Shown here: positions 5,374 to 31,195 of the stretch, one piece after another | How positions within the stretch are numbered: the first letter of the stretch is position 1 | Layout of the letters: each line of letters opens with the position of its first letter | NCBI GenBank assembly: GCA_964371245.1 | Contig: CAYJKP010000001.1 | Location: forward strand, 187,042 to 251,041 | Length of the DNA: 64,000 nucleotides | Source: an uncultured Gammaproteobacteria bacterium | Lineage (GTDB): Bacteria; Patescibacteriota; Patescibacteriia; JAHIZJ01 | Direction of reading: 5' to 3' | The notes under the pieces: model-generated | What the model was told of the DNA's origin: nothing | The model's input: only the letters and a program-made list of their open reading frames with translations | Database searches by the model: none | Position numbers and translations under genes: made by a program

Positions 5374-5973
5374 CTAGTGTCGTCCTTTAAGCGCGTCAGC
5401 CAGGGTTACTTCGTCGGCGTATTCGAGGTCCGCTCCAACGGGTAGCCCACGCGCCAGTCGGCTTACTTTGGCAACGTGGGGCTGGAGTATTTTCTTCAGA
5501 TAGAGTCCGGTTGACTCGCCCTCAACATCCGGGTTTAAGGCGAGGATGACCTCTTTAATTTTTGGCTGGTTTTTTTTCAGCCGCTCGACTAGCAGGCGGA
5601 TGTTCAGACGGTCCGGCGTGATCCCCTCGACTGGATTCAAAACGCCGCCGAGAACGAAATAGAGGCCGTTGTATTCTCGGGTTTTTTCGAGTATCTGAAC
5701 TTGGGGCGATTCCGCGACCACGCAGAGCATAGTTTTATCGCGGCTGCTCGACCGGCAAATGGCGCAGGGATTATATTCGGCGAAGGCATGGCAGGTATTG
5801 CAGACAACCACCTTATCACGCAACGCTTTGATTGCCTGAGCCAGCGAATCGACGGTCGTGCGCGGCTGGCGCAATAAATAATAGACAAAACGCTCGGACG
5901 TTTTTGGTCCGATGCCAGGAAGCTTGTTGAATTCTTCGATGAGATTTTGGATTGGTTTCGGGAACTGAGGCAT
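5374..5973 (-). CDS. recR: Recombination protein RecR
   Basis: HhH N-terminus (LPGIGPKTSER), C4 zinc finger CNTCHAFAEYNPCAIC, Toprim region. Confidence 0.9.
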   Translation of the reverse strand: MPQFPKPIQNLIEEFNKLPGIGPKTSERFVYYLLRQPRTTVDSLAQAIKALRDKVVVCNTCHAFAEYNPCAICRSSSRDKTMLCVVAESPQVQILEKTREYNGLYFVLGGVLNPVEGITPDRLNIRLLVERLKKNQPKIKEVILALNPDVEGESTGLYLKKILQPHVAKVSRLARGLPVGADLEYADEVTLADALKGRH

Positions 5974-6281: not shown

Positions 6282-7697
6282 TTAAAACGGCGCCGCTTCC
6301 TCGCTGGTTGGGGAAAATCGTTCGCCGATATCGCTCTCGAAGCAGACGCTGTGCTCATTAAAGCGAAGTTTCACCAGTCCAGTCGGACCGTTGCGATGTT
6401 TGGCGATGTGGACCTCAACCAAATTTGCTTCTTCGGGCCGGATGTCTTCGCGGCGATAATTCCGGTCCATCATCTTGCGGTAAATAAACATGACCACGTC
6501 GGCGTCTTGTTCGATCGAGCCGGATTCACGCAGGTGGGCCAGTTTCGGTATGGCCGGCTTGCTCATTTCCACGGCCCGCGAAAGCTGGGACAAGCCGATG
6601 ACTGGCACTTGAAGCTCGCGGGCGACGGCTTTCAGACCGCGGGTGATTTCGGCCACTTCCTGGACGCGATTATCGGTTAGCCCGCGGCCTTCCATAAGCT
6701 GGAGATAGTCAACGATAATGAGGTCGAGATTTGCTTCAGATTTTAAACGGCGCGCCTTGGTGCGAATTTCCATAACGTTCGCCAGGGGGGAATCATCAAT
6801 GTAGATGTTCGCTTCGGAAAGTTTGCCCATGGCATGGCCGATGGCAGCAAAATCATCGTTTTCACCCTCGGCTGTCAGCCGCCCCGTTCGGAATTTCCAG
6901 AGGCTGATCCGCGCCTCAGAGCAGAGCAGACGGTCAATTAATTGCTCCTTTGACATTTCCAAGCTGAAGATCGCAACTGCAGCCTTATGCTTGATCGCCG
7001 CCAAGCGTGCAAAATCAAGAGCGAGCGAGGTTTTTCCGACTGACGGACGAGCCGCCAAGATAATTAGATCGGATTTTTGAAAGCCGGCGAGTAGGTTGTC
7101 GAGATCGGGAAAGCCGCTCGGCAAGCCCCGCAGCTTGCCGCTTTCGCGGTGGAGCTCGTCCATCCGCTCAAAGGCATCCGTCAGCAATTCTTTGATCGGG
7201 ACGAAATTCTGCTTGAGGTATTTTTGTGAGACGCTGAACAACGACTGCTCGGCTTTATCAAGGATGAAGTCGACTTCATTCTCTTCGTGAAAACCCATGG
7301 AGGCAATTTCAGAAGCCGATTCGATCAGCCGGCGCAAAGTTGCCTTTTTCTGGACCACGTTGGCGTAATGAACAACGTTGCCGGCGGTCGGCACGATATT
7401 CGTCAGGGTTGCCAGGTACGACCGTCCGCCAACTGTCTCCAGCCGTCCCGCTTCTTCAAGCTTGTTCGACAAACTTAGGAGATCGATTGGCTCGCGGCGG
7501 GTGTAGAGATCAAGCATGGCCTCAAAGATGAACCGATGGCTATCGCGGTAAAAATCGGACGGCGAGAGAATATCAGCAATTCTGGTGACAGCTTCTTTGT
7601 CAATCAAAAGCGACCCCAAAACCGCCTGTTCGGCTTCCAGGTTTTGCGGAGGCACTTTTTCTATTGTTGTCTTTTGTGTCGATTGGGATTCAGCCAT
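6282..7697 (-). CDS. dnaB: Replicative DNA helicase DnaB
   Basis: Start chosen at ATG 7697 (MAESQSTQ...NLEAEQAVLGSLL). Walker A GKTSLAL, RecA-like C-domain. The ORF track's 8432 start is a spurious antisense extension through dnaQ. An alternative start is at 7733. Confidence 0.85.
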   Translation of the reverse strand: MAESQSTQKTTIEKVPPQNLEAEQAVLGSLLIDKEAVTRIADILSPSDFYRDSHRFIFEAMLDLYTRREPIDLLSLSNKLEEAGRLETVGGRSYLATLTNIVPTAGNVVHYANVVQKKATLRRLIESASEIASMGFHEENEVDFILDKAEQSLFSVSQKYLKQNFVPIKELLTDAFERMDELHRESGKLRGLPSGFPDLDNLLAGFQKSDLIILAARPSVGKTSLALDFARLAAIKHKAAVAIFSLEMSKEQLIDRLLCSEARISLWKFRTGRLTAEGENDDFAAIGHAMGKLSEANIYIDDSPLANVMEIRTKARRLKSEANLDLIIVDYLQLMEGRGLTDNRVQEVAEITRGLKAVARELQVPVIGLSQLSRAVEMSKPAIPKLAHLRESGSIEQDADVVMFIYRKMMDRNYRREDIRPEEANLVEVHIAKHRNGPTGLVKLRFNEHSVCFESDIGERFSPTSEEAAPF

Positions 7698-7856: not shown

Positions 7857-8477
7857 ATGCCCAATATGAGCCAGGATGAATTCATTGTCGTCGATGTTGA
7901 AACAACCGGGTTTAAACCGACCGAGGGGCATTGTATTATTGAAATCGCGGCGGAACGGTTGCGCGAGTCGAACGTCGTTGATACCTATCATTCGTTGGTC
8001 ATATCCGAACGATCGATTGATCCGGAGACCGTGCTGATCCACGGGATTACTGAGGAATTGTTGCAATTGGAAGGCCGGCCGGTTCACGAGGTGATGCAAG
8101 AATTTGTTTCGTTTATCAAGGATGCCCCGCTCATCGGCCACAATATCGGATTTGATCTCGCCTTCATCAACGCCCATCTCGAACGATTGAGCCTGCCGCG
8201 GCTGACCAACAAAACAATTGATACGATCGAGCTGGCCAGAAAGTATTTGATTATTCCGAGCTATAGCCTGGAAAAGGTCTCGGCCTATCTGAAAGTACCG
8301 CAACCGTCGGCACATCGCGCGCAAGTCGACGTTGAAGTCACGCGGCAAGTGTTTATAAAACTTAACGAACGGGCGCAGGCGAGGGGAGGCAAAGTCGCTC
8401 CTACCCCGGCACAACCCGGGACAAACCCCCAAAGACCGGTGCCGCCGACTGTACCGCCGCCGACCAGGCTTTTCTAA
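7857..8477 (+). CDS. DnaQ-like 3'-5' exonuclease (DNA pol III epsilon family) with Pro-rich C-terminal tail
   Basis: Exo I motif FIVVDVETTGF, Exo II HNIGFDLAF, Exo III YxxxD region. ATG at 7857 (alternative 7866). The low-complexity tail reads PTPAQPGTNPQRPVPPTVPPPT. Confidence 0.7.
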   Translation: MPNMSQDEFIVVDVETTGFKPTEGHCIIEIAAERLRESNVVDTYHSLVISERSIDPETVLIHGITEELLQLEGRPVHEVMQEFVSFIKDAPLIGHNIGFDLAFINAHLERLSLPRLTNKTIDTIELARKYLIIPSYSLEKVSAYLKVPQPSAHRAQVDVEVTRQVFIKLNERAQARGGKVAPTPAQPGTNPQRPVPPTVPPPTRLF

Positions 8478-8564
8478 GCAGTTACATACACGTAATTCGG
8501 GCGTGATTAGGCTCTTGTCAGAATAGTAAATATTTGCTACTTTTCATTACGCGTGAGCCATCGT

Positions 8565-8640
8565 GCGCCCATAGCTCAGTTGGTAGAGCAGCTGCCTTTT
8601 AAGCAGACGGTCGGGGGTTCAAATCCCTCTGGGCGCACCA
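8565..8640 (+). tRNA. tRNA-Lys (anticodon TTT), CCA encoded
   Basis: Cloverleaf: acceptor gcgccca/tgggcgc, anticodon loop cttttaa, T-loop ttcaaat, terminal cca. Confidence 0.9.
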
Positions 8641-8789
8641 TAGAAACCACAACGTGAGTTGAAACGATAGTTACAGGTTTATATATCGAATGGATTTGAA
8701 GGGCAGGAGCGAGGCGACCCTGAACTTGTTTCAGGGGACAGACGAGCAATCGGCGAGCTGCCAGCGGCAGGTCGCCGCTGCCCAGGACC

Positions 8790-8810
8790 CAAATCCCTCT
8801 GGGCGCACCA
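8790..8810 (+). repeat. Second copy of the 21-nt tRNA-Lys 3' end (caaatccctctgggcgcacca), a direct repeat of 8620-8640
   Basis: Exact 21/21 match exactly 170 bp downstream of the copy inside the tRNA. The upstream T-stem is not conserved, so it is not a second tRNA. Confidence 0.8.
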
Positions 8811-8824
8811 GTCGAGAATTATTA

Positions 8825-8849
8825 AACAACTAAAAAAGTTGTTTTTTTA
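8825..8849 (+). terminator. Intrinsic terminator (aacaac-taaaaaa-gttgtt + T7)
   Basis: 6-bp stem, 7-nt loop, T-run. Lies downstream of tRNA-Lys plus the insert and upstream of the ATPase promoter. Confidence 0.6.
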
Positions 8850-8903
8850 TTAGGAACGCTTTATTGAACAATCGCAATATATATGTTAAAATAAAAACCA
8901 GTT

Positions 8904-11591
8904 ATGTCAGAACACGCATGGTACAAATTGCCGCAGGCCAAGATTTTTGAGCTTCTAAAAACCAGGAAGACCGGTTTGACTGATCAGGAAGTTGCGGCGC
9001 GCCAGCGGAAATACGGATCGAATACATTGCCCCAGGACAAACGCGCGACCTGGGTTATTTTATTATTGAAACAATTTCAAAGTTCGCTCATTTATATCCT
9101 TTTATTTGCTGCCGGCGTAAGCTTGCTGCTGAATGATTATGTCGACATGTACGTGATTTTGGCAGCCGTGCTATTAAATGTCATCGTCGGCTTCATTCAG
9201 GAAAATCGGGCGATGAAAGCGATGGATAAGCTGCGCCGAGTCGTGGAATTCAGTACGCTGGTTCTGCGTGACAGCAGGGAGCTGAAGATTAATGTGGCGG
9301 ATTTGGTGCCGGGCGATGTCGTCCTCATTCAACCAGGCGATAAAGTACCGGCTGATGTCAGGCTGATCGAGGCAGAACAGCTGCGTGTTAATGAAGCGCG
9401 GTTGACTGGCGAATCCAACCCAGTCGTGAAATCCACGGAGACGCTCCACAACGAGCTGGTGCTGGCCGATCGTCTGAACATGGCGTTCATGGGCACGGTC
9501 GTTACCGGCGGTGTCGGCCGGGGCGTCGTCTGCGCGATCGGGCTGGAGACGGAAATCGGTCAGATCGCGAAGATGATAAAAGAAACCAAAGAAGAACAAA
9601 CGCCCCTGCAGAAAAAACTCAACAGTCTCAGCAAGTTAATCGGCGGGAGCGTGCTCTTGATCTGCCTGGGCGTTTTCCTGCTTGGCCTGCTGACGGGTCG
9701 CGCCTTCATCGAAATGTTCACCACCTCGGTCGCTATCGCCGTGGCGGCCATCCCCGAAGGTTTAGCGGTGGTGGTGACGGTTATTTTAGCGATCGGCATG
9801 CAGCGGATATTGAAACAACAAGGGCTCGTTCGCAAACTGGTGGCGGCCGAAACCCTGGGTTCCACCACGGTCATCTGCACTGACAAAACCGGAACGCTGA
9901 CTGAAGGGGAAATGCGGGTGGTTCGGGTTATTACGAACAATCATGATTTAGAGGCAACCGGAGACAAATTTAAAACGCACCTAAAAGAAACCGGGGATCA
10001 GACGAGTTTTATTACCGCGCTGAAAATCGGCGTCCTATGCAATGACGCCCACATTGAAAACGAATTCAGCCCGCTGCACGAATGGAAAATATTCGGCAAC
10101 CCGACGGAAAAGGCGCTCATCCTGGCTGGCAGCGAGGTCGGGCTGAGTCGTCATGTTTTGGAAAAAATACATCCGCGCCTGGCCGAGATACCGTTCAATT
10201 CAGAGCGGAAGTATATGGTCACGCTCCAGGGCTGGTCAAAAACGCACCACCTCATCTACATAAAAGGCGCACCAGAAAAAATACTCGAGATGTCCTGGCG
10301 GATCGACGTCGATGGCCAGATCGAACAGTTGACGCCTCAACAACGCGAAAAAATTAAAAAGCGCTTTGAGCATCTAAGTAATGAAGGGCTGAGAATCATC
10401 GCCCTGGCCTTTAAATCCACTTCGGCTGAAACGGCAGAATTAAAAGAAGCGCCCGGCCTGCTTGAGGATTTTGTTTTTGCCGGATTGATGGGCATCCAGG
10501 ATCCACTCCGGCCGGAAGCGAAAGAAACGATACGGCAGTGTAAGGAAGCCGGTATTGGAATCGCGATGATTACCGGTGATCATCGCTTGACCGCCCAATC
10601 AATCGCTCGTGAGCTGGGTTTGCCGTCAAAGATGGAGAACATCCTGCAAGGCGATGAGCTGGCCAAAATGAACGCGACACAGCTGCAGAAACGCGTCAAA
10701 AAGGTGTCCGTCTACGCTCGGGTGACGCCAAAAGACAAGCTGCGCATCGTTGACGCGCTCCAGGCCAATGGTGAGGTTGTCGCAATGACGGGGGACGGTT
10801 TGAACGACGCCCCAGCGCTGCGCTCCGCCGATATCGGCGTTTCGCTTGGTTCGGGAACTGACATTGCCAAAGAAACCGCCAACCTCGTTATTCTCGATAA
10901 TAATTTCAAAACGATTGTCGCCGCCGTCCGGCAGGGGCGCGTGCTTTTTGAAAACATCAAAAAAGTAGTGCTCTACCTCATGTCGGACAGTTTTTCTGAG
11001 GTGATCATTATAACTGGAGCGTTAGTGTTGGGCATACCGCTGCCGCTCGTGGCGGCGCAGATACTTTGGATCAATTTGGTTGGCGATGGCCTGCCGAACA
11101 TGGCGCTGACGGTTGAACCGGAGGAGCGTCACATCATGCAGGAATCACCGATTCGTCGGAATGCTCCGATCCTCGACACAGAAATGAAAACATTGGTTGC
11201 TGTCATCAGCGCTGTTACCGGCCTGGTCACGCTCGGCCTCTTTTACTATTTCTGGAAATCAACCGGCGATCTGTCGTTGGCCCGGACGATTGCCTTTACT
11301 TCCGTCGGCATTGACTCGCTGATATACGTCTTCAGCTGCCGTTCACTGCGGATACCAATCATAAAGAAAAATCCGTTTTCAAATCCCTGGCTGGTTTATG
11401 CCGTGATTGGTGGCATCATACTTCAAATTGCCGCCATCTATTTTGGGCCGTTGCAGAATGTTTTACGAACAGTACCGTTGACGCTTGACCATTGGCTGGT
11501 CATTGGCACGGCCGTTATATTTGTCATCCTGCTCATCGAAGTGATAAAATATTTATTCTTACACCAAAAAAAATTCCATGCGGCGCAATAA
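8904..11591 (+). CDS. P-type cation-transporting ATPase (P2-type, Ca2+/cation pump-like)
   Basis: 895 aa. DKTGTLT phosphorylation motif, TGDHRLTA, GDGLNDAPAL, 10 predicted TMs. Confidence 0.9.
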   Translation: MSEHAWYKLPQAKIFELLKTRKTGLTDQEVAARQRKYGSNTLPQDKRATWVILLLKQFQSSLIYILLFAAGVSLLLNDYVDMYVILAAVLLNVIVGFIQENRAMKAMDKLRRVVEFSTLVLRDSRELKINVADLVPGDVVLIQPGDKVPADVRLIEAEQLRVNEARLTGESNPVVKSTETLHNELVLADRLNMAFMGTVVTGGVGRGVVCAIGLETEIGQIAKMIKETKEEQTPLQKKLNSLSKLIGGSVLLICLGVFLLGLLTGRAFIEMFTTSVAIAVAAIPEGLAVVVTVILAIGMQRILKQQGLVRKLVAAETLGSTTVICTDKTGTLTEGEMRVVRVITNNHDLEATGDKFKTHLKETGDQTSFITALKIGVLCNDAHIENEFSPLHEWKIFGNPTEKALILAGSEVGLSRHVLEKIHPRLAEIPFNSERKYMVTLQGWSKTHHLIYIKGAPEKILEMSWRIDVDGQIEQLTPQQREKIKKRFEHLSNEGLRIIALAFKSTSAETAELKEAPGLLEDFVFAGLMGIQDPLRPEAKETIRQCKEAGIGIAMITGDHRLTAQSIARELGLPSKMENILQGDELAKMNATQLQKRVKKVSVYARVTPKDKLRIVDALQANGEVVAMTGDGLNDAPALRSADIGVSLGSGTDIAKETANLVILDNNFKTIVAAVRQGRVLFENIKKVVLYLMSDSFSEVIIITGALVLGIPLPLVAAQILWINLVGDGLPNMALTVEPEERHIMQESPIRRNAPILDTEMKTLVAVISAVTGLVTLGLFYYFWKSTGDLSLARTIAFTSVGIDSLIYVFSCRSLRIPIIKKNPFSNPWLVYAVIGGIILQIAAIYFGPLQNVLRTVPLTLDHWLVIGTAVIFVILLIEVIKYLFLHQKKFHAAQ

Positions 11592-22349: not shown

Positions 22350-22424
22350 GCCGCTATCGTCTAGTGGCTAGGACGCCAGGTTCTCATCCTGGTAACCGGG
22401 GTTCGACTCCCCGTAGCGGTACCA
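22350..22424 (+). tRNA. tRNA-Glu (anticodon CTC), CCA encoded
   Basis: 75 nt. Acceptor gccgcta/tagcggt, anticodon loop ttCTCat, T-loop ttcgact. Preceded by a TATAAT-like box. Confidence 0.85.
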
Positions 22425-22433
22425 GATGTTTAT

Positions 22434-23879
22434 ATGCTCGGAAAAAGATATTTTTCGTTACTAGTTCTCGCCGGCTTTCTGTGTCTGACGTTTCTCGTCC
22501 ATTTCAGAGTATTGAGGGTGTACTTTTTATCTGACGACTTTGGCTATGTCCTGTTGGCCCGTGATACCTCAGTGTCCGAGAGTATCAGCTTAATAACAAA
22601 GGAACAAAAACTTGGCTCGGGAACCGGGCTATATCGACCGATGGTTGATATAGCTTTTGTTTTTGCTTACCAGTTCTTCAAGGAAAATCCGGCCGGCTAC
22701 CATGCCACCAGCCTCATATTTCACGCGCTGATCGCCTGGCTTTTTTACCTGCTTATCTCAAGGATGAGCCACAACAAGGGGCTGGCTTTTTTAGCCGGCG
22801 CGTTTTTTATCGTTTACCCGATGAACATTGAAAGCATTGCCTGGCTGTCTAATTGGACCACACTGATATCCAGTTTGTTTATCATGTTGGCCATCTATCT
22901 GTATTGGGAATATCGCATTACAAAACAAATATATTTATTTTTCATTTCCCTATTAGCCATACTGTTTTCCCTTCTTGCCAAAGAGACCGCAATTATCATG
23001 CCCCTGGTTTTGATTGCGCTTGATCTGATGAGGAGCAAATTAAATGGCCAGACGGCGAAGAAAGTGTTTAGAAACTGGCTCAGTTATGCGGCCAGTATTG
23101 TGTTAATTGGACTGTTTTTTGCCTGGCGGTTTATCATGCTCAAAGGCCGGGGCGGTTATCGAACCTCCGATGGTGAATCCATTTACGGCAGTTTGACACA
23201 CAATGAAGTCATTACATTTCTCACCACCATAAAATATTTTCTGTTTAATTATCTGAACGATGTGGTTTTCCGCTTTCAAAACCGGCTAGCAATAATCTAT
23301 TGGTCAGTTTTTGCCGCTGTGCTTGTTCTGGCGGTATTGTACCTGGTGAACAAAAGGAAAAATATAAAATATTTCTGGCTGTTATTCGGCCTTGGCTGGA
23401 TTTACATTTTTACTTTGCCGGTTATCAATCTTTTAAACGGCATACACCGGGACTTATCCGGCTCGCGCTTTTTATATCTGCCAGGCTTGGGATTTTGCCT
23501 GCTGCTAGCGGTGCTGGTTTTGGATTTTAATAATCGTCCGGGAAAAATGCTTACATACGCCAAAGGGGCTGCGGTTGGGTTGTTTATTGTGGGTTTCAGC
23601 TTTTTGTCTTATAAAAACCAGGTGCCGTGGCTGGAAGCTTCGGCCCAGGTCCGGGCCGTCGGCGATAAAGTGCAGGCCAGCGTTAAAGACCCGCCGAGGA
23701 AGGCCGAATTTTATTTTAAAAATTTACCGGATAATTGGGCGGGCGCGTATTCTTTGCGCAACGGCATAGAAAACTATCTGCTGCTTTTGTACGACAAATC
23801 GCCCAGATACCTGACTGCGAAAAGGGTAGAGGAGTTTCCAGTGCAGAAGAGCGGAAAAAGCATGTATTTCTTTGATTAG
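22434..23879 (+). CDS. Polytopic membrane protein, putative GT-C glycosyltransferase (PMT/ArnT-like)
   Basis: 481 aa with more than 10 TMs. DD motif in the first periplasmic loop (LSDDFGY). Starts 10 nt after the tRNA-Glu 3' end. Family call is tentative. Confidence 0.45.
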   Translation: MLGKRYFSLLVLAGFLCLTFLVHFRVLRVYFLSDDFGYVLLARDTSVSESISLITKEQKLGSGTGLYRPMVDIAFVFAYQFFKENPAGYHATSLIFHALIAWLFYLLISRMSHNKGLAFLAGAFFIVYPMNIESIAWLSNWTTLISSLFIMLAIYLYWEYRITKQIYLFFISLLAILFSLLAKETAIIMPLVLIALDLMRSKLNGQTAKKVFRNWLSYAASIVLIGLFFAWRFIMLKGRGGYRTSDGESIYGSLTHNEVITFLTTIKYFLFNYLNDVVFRFQNRLAIIYWSVFAAVLVLAVLYLVNKRKNIKYFWLLFGLGWIYIFTLPVINLLNGIHRDLSGSRFLYLPGLGFCLLLAVLVLDFNNRPGKMLTYAKGAAVGLFIVGFSFLSYKNQVPWLEASAQVRAVGDKVQASVKDPPRKAEFYFKNLPDNWAGAYSLRNGIENYLLLLYDKSPRYLTAKRVEEFPVQKSGKSMYFFD

Positions 23880-31046: not shown

Positions 31047-31067
31047 GAGAGTGATTATCATCTTGTC

Positions 31068-31088
31068 ACCCTGAACTTGTTTCAGGGT
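31068..31088 (+). repeat. Hairpin motif accctgaacttgtttcaggg(t); an identical 20-nt copy is at 8717-8736
   Basis: Exact 20-nt identity between the two loci. 7-8 bp stem with a cttgt loop. Confidence 0.7.
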
Positions 31089-31195
31089 CTCCATAACCAC
31101 AAACGTAGTAATGAGATGCCGAAACGAGTTCGGCATGACAGTATCGTGATATTGATTCACGCGGTAAATACGAATGGTTAATTAACGAAATTATT

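Follow-up and report, generated by a model that had tools for sequence, protein, structure and literature searches.

We analysed a 64,000-nt stretch of DNA from an uncultured bacterium with a Patescibacteriota lineage in GTDB (positions 187,042 to 251,041 of contig CAYJKP010000001.1, assembly GCA_964371245.1), and we refer to this whole stretch as the window. Our subject is a tRNA-Lys gene that is followed by a short, structured insert and then by a second copy of its own 3' end. The intact tRNA-Lys(UUU), with its CCA encoded, occupies positions 8565-8640 of the plus strand (ARAGORN; Rfam RF00005, 73.3 bits). Its last 21 nt, CAAATCCCTCTGGGCGCACCA (Q1, 8620-8640), run from C56 in the T-loop to A76 and occur exactly twice in the window, with the other copy (Q2) at 8790-8810. 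None of 100 dinucleotide-preserving shuffles contained a match to this 21-mer, even when three mismatches were allowed. The copies are spaced 170 nt apart and bracket 149 nt of DNA (8641-8789). The second copy is preceded by CAGGACC, bases from which no T-stem can form; ARAGORN calls no tRNA or transfer-messenger RNA (tmRNA) there, and Rfam returns only chance-level matches over 8641-8810. We also considered that Q2 might be a decayed piece of a tRNA or tmRNA, but it was ruled out as such, having neither the 5' strand of a T-stem nor an acceptor partner. An initial annotation, made from the sequence alone, had described the exact repeat and had argued that its second copy is not a tRNA, and both statements are borne out by these analyses.

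The locus sequence was compared across five independent assemblies. Positions 8401-8910 are matched at 100% by an ENA contig (L001) and a Logan contig (L004), two other Logan contigs (L002 and L003) begin within the region and are 100% identical over the parts that they cover, and a second ENA assembly (L096) agrees at every position from 8470 to 8910. Because the locus is identical in independent assemblies, the repeat is confirmed as real and is no assembly artefact. Contigs tend to break here: L002 starts at window position 8565 and L003 at 8623, at or inside the tRNA-Lys or the 21-nt repeat, and the end of contig L092 and the start of contig L097 likewise fall in the tRNA-Lys/repeat. These breaks suggest branching of the assembly graph, arising from repeats or strain variants.

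Genes within ~10 kb of the tRNA encode ribosomal proteins, SecY, DnaB, an RNase_T-type exonuclease, a P-type ATPase and aminoacyl-tRNA synthetases, the bacterial housekeeping set of a small genome, and the relatives described below carry the label Patescibacteria. No integrase, transposase or endonuclease domain was found in the genes within ~10 kb or in 31 of the 37 open reading frames (ORFs) listed beyond 21.5 kb (including 22434-23879). The insert itself contains no ORF, and no conserved ORF runs through its 149 nt, so the initial description of a 149-bp insert without an integrase stands for the genes scanned.

All parts of the locus lie on the plus strand. A promoter-like sequence, TTGTCA-17 nt-TACTTT (8515-8543), presumably drives the tRNA; it aligns with TTGCAA..TAATCT and TTGCCA..TACTAT in two relatives (L093 and L030, respectively), and a consensus scan made no promoter call at 8515-8543. 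Immediately after the tRNA come TAGAAACCAC (8641-8650), a trailer head conserved in sequence comparisons that would form the left part of a cassette, and a poorly conserved A/T-rich spacer (8651-8688). There follows GGATTTGAA (8692-8700), of which all nine bases are the reverse complement of tRNA bases 54-62 (TTCAAATCC), in the T-loop and T-stem, and of which the first seven form one strand of a helix (P1) in minimum free energy (MFE) and RNAalifold folds. The same methods predict a core with a three-way junction (8701-8783), made up of P2 (GGGCAG, 8701-8706, with CTGCCC, 8778-8783), a variable hairpin P3 with CCCTGAACTTGTTTCAGGG at its tip (8718-8736), and P4 (CGGCGAGCTGCC-AGC-GGCAGGTCGCCG, 8751-8777), which contains a conserved G.G mismatch. 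AGGACC (8784-8789), the right end of the cassette and conserved as CAGGACN in the alignment, abuts Q2, the putative displaced tRNA-Lys 3' fragment (C56-A76), which is part of no tRNA. Beyond Q2, a stem that appears as an inverted repeat and in the fold, AACAACT/AGTTGTT, is followed by T7 (8824-8850). This is likely the terminator of a transcript that contains tRNA and cassette, as initially annotated; a homologous stem and T-run occupy the same place in L030, although the A+T-rich stem is weak (only -6.6 kcal/mol) and is not called by the consensus scan. That scan also finds no promoter-like site inside the insert, and the next such site, at 8864-8892, serves the ATPase. Because the insert lacks a promoter-like site and a terminator-like site follows the second copy, the insert is likely co-transcribed with tRNA-Lys as its 3' trailer, and its placement as a structured segment between tRNA and terminator-like site agrees with the initial annotation.

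Homologues of the insert are present in related genomes. We located a close relative, L030, by scanning 185,579 species genomes (one genome per species) with the 21-mer. Its DNA is ~92% identical to the window, with collinear flanks (ATPase 97.7% and exonuclease 91.8% identical). L030 has an identical tRNA-Lys, then a 95-nt insert and then the 21-mer again, and it contains two cassette units in tandem. Unit 2 consists of the 21-mer, TAGAAACCAT..ACGATAG, GGGCGCATCA and the terminator. Over the 21-mer and trailer head it differs from the window by one substitution and one 1-nt indel in ~51 positions, and it aligns again across the terminator, with ~130 nt deleted in between; this alignment identifies unit 2 as the orthologue of the window cassette, one that has suffered an internal deletion. 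Unit 1 is a different, short-form cassette with a single 9-bp hairpin in place of the three-way junction, and this hairpin differs from the one in that position in the window at four base pairs, all of them compensated. The duplication in L030, an identity block, reaches ~30 nt into the trailer beyond the tRNA, and the two 21-nt copies are identical to one another in L030 as they are in the window. In all four 3'-side cassette copies the tRNA 3' end is followed by TAGAAACCA[C/T] at the start of the cassette; the longer TAGAAACCAC is identical after the tRNA in the window, L030 and L093, its counterpart after the second copy in L030 is TAGAAACCAT, and CAGGAC is invariant in the window, L030 and L093. 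The cassette appears from these comparisons to have been inserted more than once.

A more distant relative, L093, has an ATPase 73% identical to that of the window and different upstream genes. Its tRNA-Lys is followed by TAGAAACCAC, an unalignable spacer, GGATTCGAAGGGCAG, the core, CAGGACA and a copy resembling the tRNA 3' end, CGAATCCTCC-TGCGCCC-ACCA; the GGATTTGAA segment of the window is also matched, as GGATTCGAA. Conservation between the two loci is uneven. The tRNAs are identical at 67/76 positions (88%), TAGAAACCAC at 10/10, the spacer at 13/37, the core (8738-8789) at 49/52 (94%), the second copy Q2 at 16/21 and the downstream DNA at 23/57. Spacer and flanks are thus ~35-40% identical, and the neighbouring non-coding DNA is saturated with substitutions. 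A core better preserved than the tRNA next to it, amid DNA so heavily substituted, shows that the insert is not a decaying scar. The idea of a scar left by an excised or decayed element, offered in the initial annotation, is contradicted by this conservation, by the compensatory changes described below, and by the distances over which both persist, with neighbouring proteins of the relatives only 63-73% identical.

The two 3'-end copies of L093 differ at 5/21 positions, all in the acceptor strand: the tRNA's own end reads ACGGCGC-ACCA and the displaced copy TGCGCCC-ACCA, with CGAATCCTCC kept. This difference is as expected if the working end is cassette-borne and the native end was displaced. 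The TGCGCCC acceptor type is read directly in the tRNA-Lys of another relative, L094, and is implied by the GGGCGCA 5' strand in L097, where the 3' end of the tRNA is off the contig. The acceptor 5' strands of tRNA-Lys(UUU) vary among the window, L049, L054, L093, L094 and L097 (GCGCCCA, GCGCCGT, GGGCGCA and GGGAGTA), and the 3' strand always matches the 5' strand where it is on the contig, which that of L097 is not. Such variation would fit repeated gene-end replacement or escape from a sequence-specific nuclease.

In L097, whose ATPase is 63% identical to that of the window, the core homologue (GGGCAGGAGTGAG...CGGCGAGCCGCCGAGGGCGGGTCGTCGCTGCCCTGGA) lies on the 5' side of tRNA-Lys, between a duplicate of the leader and tRNA nt 1-19 and the tRNA itself; the duplication includes 6 nt of the leader. 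The orientation of the core relative to transcription is nonetheless the same on the 5' side (L097) as on the 3' side (window, L030 and L093). A coding function for the cassette was ruled out by an 11-nt indel between homologues, which is not a multiple of three, and a role as cis-regulator of the downstream ATPase was ruled out because the orientation relative to the ATPase varies among genomes. As far as could be searched, the cassette family seems to be restricted to one Patescibacteria clade.

Separate MFE folds of the window, L093 and L097 copies gave the same three-way junction, which is closed by P2 (GGGCAG/CUGCCC) and contains a variable P3 and a P4 of 6+5 bp with the conserved G.G mismatch. 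In RNAalifold, P4 shows one U-A to C-G double change and one G-C to G-U change, and P2a, a 2-bp helix beside P2, shows a C-G to U-A change. The outer helix P1 (window, L030 and L093) pairs GGAUUYG with CRAAUCC of the displaced fragment; in L093 the strands read GGATTCG/CGAATCC, a U-A to C-G double change relative to the window. The segment GGATTYGAA is the exact complement of T-loop/T-stem bases 54-62 and co-varies with the local T-loop. All three cores fold better on the sense strand (tRNA sense) than on the antisense strand (in L097, -46.5 vs -31.0 kcal/mol). We regard the shared fold and its compensatory changes, drawn from three or four sequences, as suggestive. Two hairpins had been named in the initial annotation. 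One, CCCTGAA-CTTGT-TTCAGGG, is present at 8718-8736, whereas the other, cagcggc/gccgctg (8762-8780), can be drawn in the window but is broken in L097; the helix kept in all homologues is 8751-8777 (P4). The three copies used to build a covariance model (R1) score 90-95 bits against it, a measure of self-consistency only. No Rfam 15 family matches the window, L093 or L097 cassettes at relaxed thresholds, the best non-tRNA matches falling far below gathering scores.

We propose, with middling confidence, that the insert and its flanking repeat represent a family of small, ORF-less, structured cassettes that occupy the tRNA-Lys gene in a Patescibacteria clade by gene-end replacement. The cassette would enter the T-loop between positions 55 and 56 and would bring, at its left end, its own copy of C56-A76 together with TAGAAACCAC; this copy would complete the working tRNA at 8565-8640. 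The resident 3' end would be shoved downstream and would persist at 8790-8810 as the second 21-nt copy. The body of the cassette would comprise the spacer, GGATTTGAA, the three-way-junction core and CAGGACC, and GGAUUUG would clamp onto CAAAUCC of the displaced fragment in the predicted fold. We infer a cassette origin for the left-hand copy, past or present mobility of the cassette, and its co-transcription; the repeat would then be the footprint of an insertion that replaced the gene end, and the cassette is probably mobile. Fungal mitochondria provide a precedent, in that endonuclease cassettes in Allomyces macrogynus atp6 and in Glomus atp6, atp9, cox2 and nad3 carry a foreign gene terminus and displace the native one (PMC3630166). 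The order of gene core, inserted terminus, cassette and native terminus is the same here, the putative inserted and native termini of L093 differ, as would be expected after horizontal transfer, and ORFs for putative GIY-YIG endonucleases stand at equivalent tRNA-Lys places in L049 and L054. In contrast to the fungal examples, the host gene here is a tRNA gene of a bacterium (Patescibacteria) and the window cassette is ORF-less.

Three relatives, L049, L054 and L094, have a tRNA-Lys without the cassette. TAGAAACCAC was not found after the tRNA in any of them, and their trailers cannot be aligned with that of the window. In L049 (locus 7050-7445, minus strand), an 85-aa GIY-YIG ORF (7116-7373, Pfam E = 1.8e-11) separates the intact tRNA from a duplicated tRNA-Lys 5' part, and the stop codon of the ORF falls inside the first bases of the tRNA; the duplicated part is nt 1-27, interrupted after G19 by a 32-nt G+C-rich hairpin. 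An 88-aa GIY-YIG ORF (E = 3.3e-17) is located ~130 nt 3' of tRNA-Lys in L054 (6299-6771, minus strand), and the spacer upstream of this ORF has a 14/15-nt motif in common with the P3 region of L097 (z = 4.5, marginal). From these arrangements it appears that insertions which duplicate a gene end have hit tRNA-Lys repeatedly in this clade. Because GIY-YIG genes occupy the same tRNA-Lys ends in relatives, we favour a trans-acting GIY-YIG homing-type endonuclease over an integrase as the most plausible driver. The L054 trailer has further features: the motif AAAGTGAGTGGT, also found in the P3 loop of L097, a hairpin that takes in the CACCA end of the tRNA (CACCATGAACT/AGTTCATGGTG), and two copies of AAAG[T/C]GAGTGGTTCA.

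Several observations weigh against this model. The exact match between the window's two copies cannot alone tell which of them is foreign, and no empty site was found in a relative close enough for its trailer to be aligned. No GIY-YIG homologue was detected in the 64-kb window (tblastn with GIY-YIG queries), no cassette copy with an ORF was found, and no copy of any kind was found at other loci or in viral contigs, plasmids or phages. Mobility is deduced from the distribution of the cassette and its tandem copies, and a core this well conserved could be maintained by a function for the host instead of by selfish spread. With the element known from four lineages and three core sequences, covariation is thin, at one or two double changes per helix. 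Finally, the whole module of promoter, tRNA-Lys, insert and terminator is inverted in situ between the window (~8480-8856) and L030 (~1887-2204), with breakpoints just past the exonuclease stop codon and just ahead of the ATPase promoter. Inverted repeats were looked for at these breakpoints and none were found, and the inversion is left unexplained by the cassette model. The module is on the plus strand in the window, L092 and L093 and on the minus strand in L030, L049, L054, L094 and L097.

The insert might instead serve the host, as a small RNA (sRNA) or processing element that is freed from the tRNA-Lys precursor, is inherited vertically and has been lost in some lineages, with the repeat being part of the RNA (P1 plus the ACCA tail). 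A core that is more conserved than the tRNA would suit such a molecule, as would a shared fold whose compensatory changes and G-U pairs favour the sense strand, an orientation to transcription that is constant on the 3' side (window, L030, L093) and the 5' side (L097), and a terminator-like site after an insert without an internal promoter-like site. E. coli has an example in 3'ETS-leuZ, an sRNA from the 3' external transcribed spacer (3'ETS) of a tRNA, and the cassette resembles the 3'ETS sRNAs as an apparent structured segment between tRNA and terminator; release by tRNA processing is a feature of the 3'ETS. Unlike these sRNAs, however, the cassette has a duplicated gene end on its flank, comes in tandem copies and is also found in a 5' leader. 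Moreover, the core is dispensable, since L030 deleted the orthologous core and has a short form, and L049, L054 and L094 lack a core altogether. It is found now 3', now 5' of the tRNA, the tandem copies and the duplications into non-tRNA flanks are DNA-level events, and no Rfam family corresponds to it. We therefore judge a host RNA unlikely, while a classical attachment-site (att) footprint seems somewhat less probable still. In that case an integrase island or prophage would have entered the region from T-loop to 3' end and then been mostly deleted, leaving attL, 149 nt of arm remnants and attR. Decayed, ORF-poor, att-flanked derivatives are known, such as the cis-mobilisable elements of streptococci. 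As in tRNA islands and prophages, the tRNA appears to be regenerated by sequence of the insert, a 3' fragment lies in direct orientation at the far end, and units have accumulated in tandem at one site (here in L030). An intact tRNA plus a displaced 3' fragment is what defines tRNA-inserted islands (Islander; PMC4383910), and to this extent the att-like reading of the initial annotation is sound. The identity block of L030 extends ~30 nt beyond the tRNA, as att blocks often do, its tandem units resemble accretion at att sites, and long displaced tRNA halves occur in unrelated Dormibacterota with the same 21-mer. The recombinase is what fails to appear: there is no integrase or other recombinase in the scanned ORFs of the window, and no integrase at the tRNA-Lys site in L030, L049, L054, L093, L094 or L097 (eight related loci in the tally made for this explanation). 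The tRNA-Lys loci compared likewise hold no larger, integrase-bearing element of the kind that the initial annotation hoped to see intact in relatives. In addition, the insert is only 95-149 nt long, and its interior is conserved and structured; the supposed remnant is 94% conserved with compensatory changes, whereas adjacent DNA is saturated. The sister version lies 5' with a duplicated 5' end, where the core keeps its orientation to transcription and not to the junction, and neither the 21-mer nor the cassette motifs turned up a candidate attP in 2.9 million viral contigs. Of the three origins first suggested for the insert, the decayed scar is not supported, and both the miniature mobile element and the tRNA-linked small RNA are retained.

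A further reading, which we consider unlikely, is that the folded element of ~100-150 nt is itself mobile. It would be a protein-less RNA or single-stranded DNA cassette aimed at the elbow positions 19/20 (D-loop) and 55/56 (T-loop) of the tRNA-Lys gene, with GGATTYGAA acting as a site-recognition guide or clamp for a trans-acting enzyme. Such an element would represent a novel type of parasite of tRNA genes in Patescibacteria, perhaps along with a new tRNA-linked RNA class. We give hardly any credence to the simple alternative that slippage in replication or an unequal exchange duplicated the tRNA's 3' end locally, without an element. The identical copies and short spacing (170 nt) of the window are what slippage would leave, but the acceptor strand of the second copy in L093 is not that of its own tRNA, and what lies between the copies is a structured, conserved unit that can stand 3' or 5' of the tRNA. 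The initial annotation had allowed for local duplication if relatives showed the same spacing and the insert was found nowhere else; homologous inserts do occur elsewhere: spacings of 116, 159 and 170 nt are seen, L030 has tandem units, and in L097 the tRNA has the core on its opposite side. Very improbable, too, is an intron-like segment (8620-8789) that is removed in RNA to join nt 1-55 to the second copy, or a second copy that acts as a separate 3' half. The insertion points 19/20 and 55/56 are among the sites of archaeal non-canonical tRNA introns (Fujishima 2010, cited in PMC10714607), which we counted for this explanation, and excising 8620-8789 in the window would restore exactly the same tRNA. 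Every locus nevertheless has a contiguous, intact tRNA, which makes splicing needless, and joining nt 1-55 to the second copy in L093 would oppose GCGCCGU and UGCGCCC and yield no acceptor stem. Rfam recognises neither a group I nor a group II core in the insert, nor any other family, and no partner 5' half was seen for a split tRNA.

Displaced tRNA fragments are the standard signpost of islands, and here they bracket an ORF-less insert of ~150 nt whose conservation exceeds that of the tRNA and whose fold is shared among homologues. A mobile cassette would mean that tRNA genes of ultra-small Patescibacteria undergo gene-end replacement, a type of insertion known from integrase islands and from fungal mitochondrial endonuclease cassettes, and that it can persist without a gene of its own; if the cassette is a host RNA, it founds a new tRNA-linked RNA family. 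Either way, short duplications of tRNA ends should not be scored as dead scars. Model R1, together with the TAGAAACCAC head and CAGGACN tail, provides a sequence model for a survey of the clade.

Searches beyond the locus returned little. In the 185,579 species genomes, the 21-mer mostly marks unrelated tRNAs with the same 3' end, and only L030 was relevant. The 2.9 million viral contigs, searched with the 21-mer and cassette motifs, yielded no candidate attP; their one match to the 21-mer (L005), not followed up, lies at the end of the stored stretch and is preceded by GGGGTT as in an intact T-arm, and ARAGORN finds no tRNA at that match. Two viral matches to the 17-mer AATGGATTTGAAGGGCA were rejected as chance occurrences inside coding sequence, and gapped cassette patterns and the P4 pattern gave nothing in the viral contigs. 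A metagenome scan with GGGCGCACCATAGAAACCA recovered the L030 contig again plus chance matches, in an acyl-CoA-dehydrogenase-like gene and one unrelated tRNA-Arg. Comparison of the cassette with plasmids and phages yielded nothing, covariance model R1 found no new convincing copies in 420 kb of sequence, and an N-terminal ATPase fragment used as protein query gave distant matches only.

The tip of P3 has a separate history. CCCTGAACTTGTTTCAGGG, a 19-mer at 8718-8736, is peculiar to the window's cassette, and the P3 sequences of L093 and L097 differ. An exact second copy at 31069-31087 forms the left arm of a double-hairpin element (31066-31141; right hairpin 31116-31136), which is intergenic and follows a dnaK-like ORF. 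The layout of this element is GTCA-CCCTGAACTTGTTTCAGGG-TC...(40-70 nt)...GATGCYGAAACRAGTTCRGCATGAC. The 19-mer also occurs in L054 (4894-4912) and in 29 IMG/VR contigs (L055-L083) that range from G+C-rich to A+T-rich, and related copies are found in intergenic DNA of Novosphingobium, Sphingobium and Sphingomonas (Sphingomonadaceae) and Treponema plasmids. No Rfam family matches the double-hairpin repeat, and we found no paper that prints the hairpin sequence. The P3 tip resembles repetitive extragenic palindromes (REPs), bacterial interspersed mosaic elements or miniature inverted-repeat transposable elements (MITEs) in being a short palindrome with several intergenic copies and inverted pairs (GTCA-CCCTGAACTTGTTTCAGGG ... 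ATGCYGAAACRAGTTCRGCAT-GAC), and it appears to stem from a promiscuous REP-like repeat that inserted into the cassette or exchanged sequence with it. REPs are species-specific, and the identity of this 19-mer across very distant taxa and viral contigs is unusual; no transposase associated with the P3-tip repeat was identified. The initial impression of an insert packed with hairpins arose partly because the P3 tip is a REP-like repeat.

Other short repeats accompany these loci. Past the displaced fragment of L093, region 5745-5930 contains two direct repeats, GGCGGGAC(G/A)(C/T)CTC(G/A)CTTAAT(G/C)AATAT, together with GTCCCGCC, inverted and set in a terminator-like hairpin; the hairpin ahead of the L097 core is likewise formed by GTCCCGC/GCGGGAC. 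In Dormibacterota, tRNA-Arg(ACG) ends in the same 21-mer (L007, L010, L033, L035, L038 and L040, including metagenome-assembled genomes), and the contigs contain many scattered, displaced tRNA-Arg 3' halves of ~45 nt that begin in the anticodon stem. Such halves are what islands integrated at the anticodon-loop sublocation classically look like. An unrelated metagenome contig (L085, ~70-330) has a tRNA-Arg(CCG) and, ~50 nt further on, an incomplete duplicate of the 3' half of this tRNA, which runs from the anticodon loop onward and contains a 14-nt insertion in the T-loop; no element is visible there. Within the window, region 22350-23879 shows no tRNA-end duplication at its tRNA-Glu(CUC). This tRNA is followed directly by a 481-aa ORF, whose sole match, to a PTPS_related membrane-protein domain, is weak and which lies in the lowest-G+C stretch of the window (0.45 vs ~0.51).

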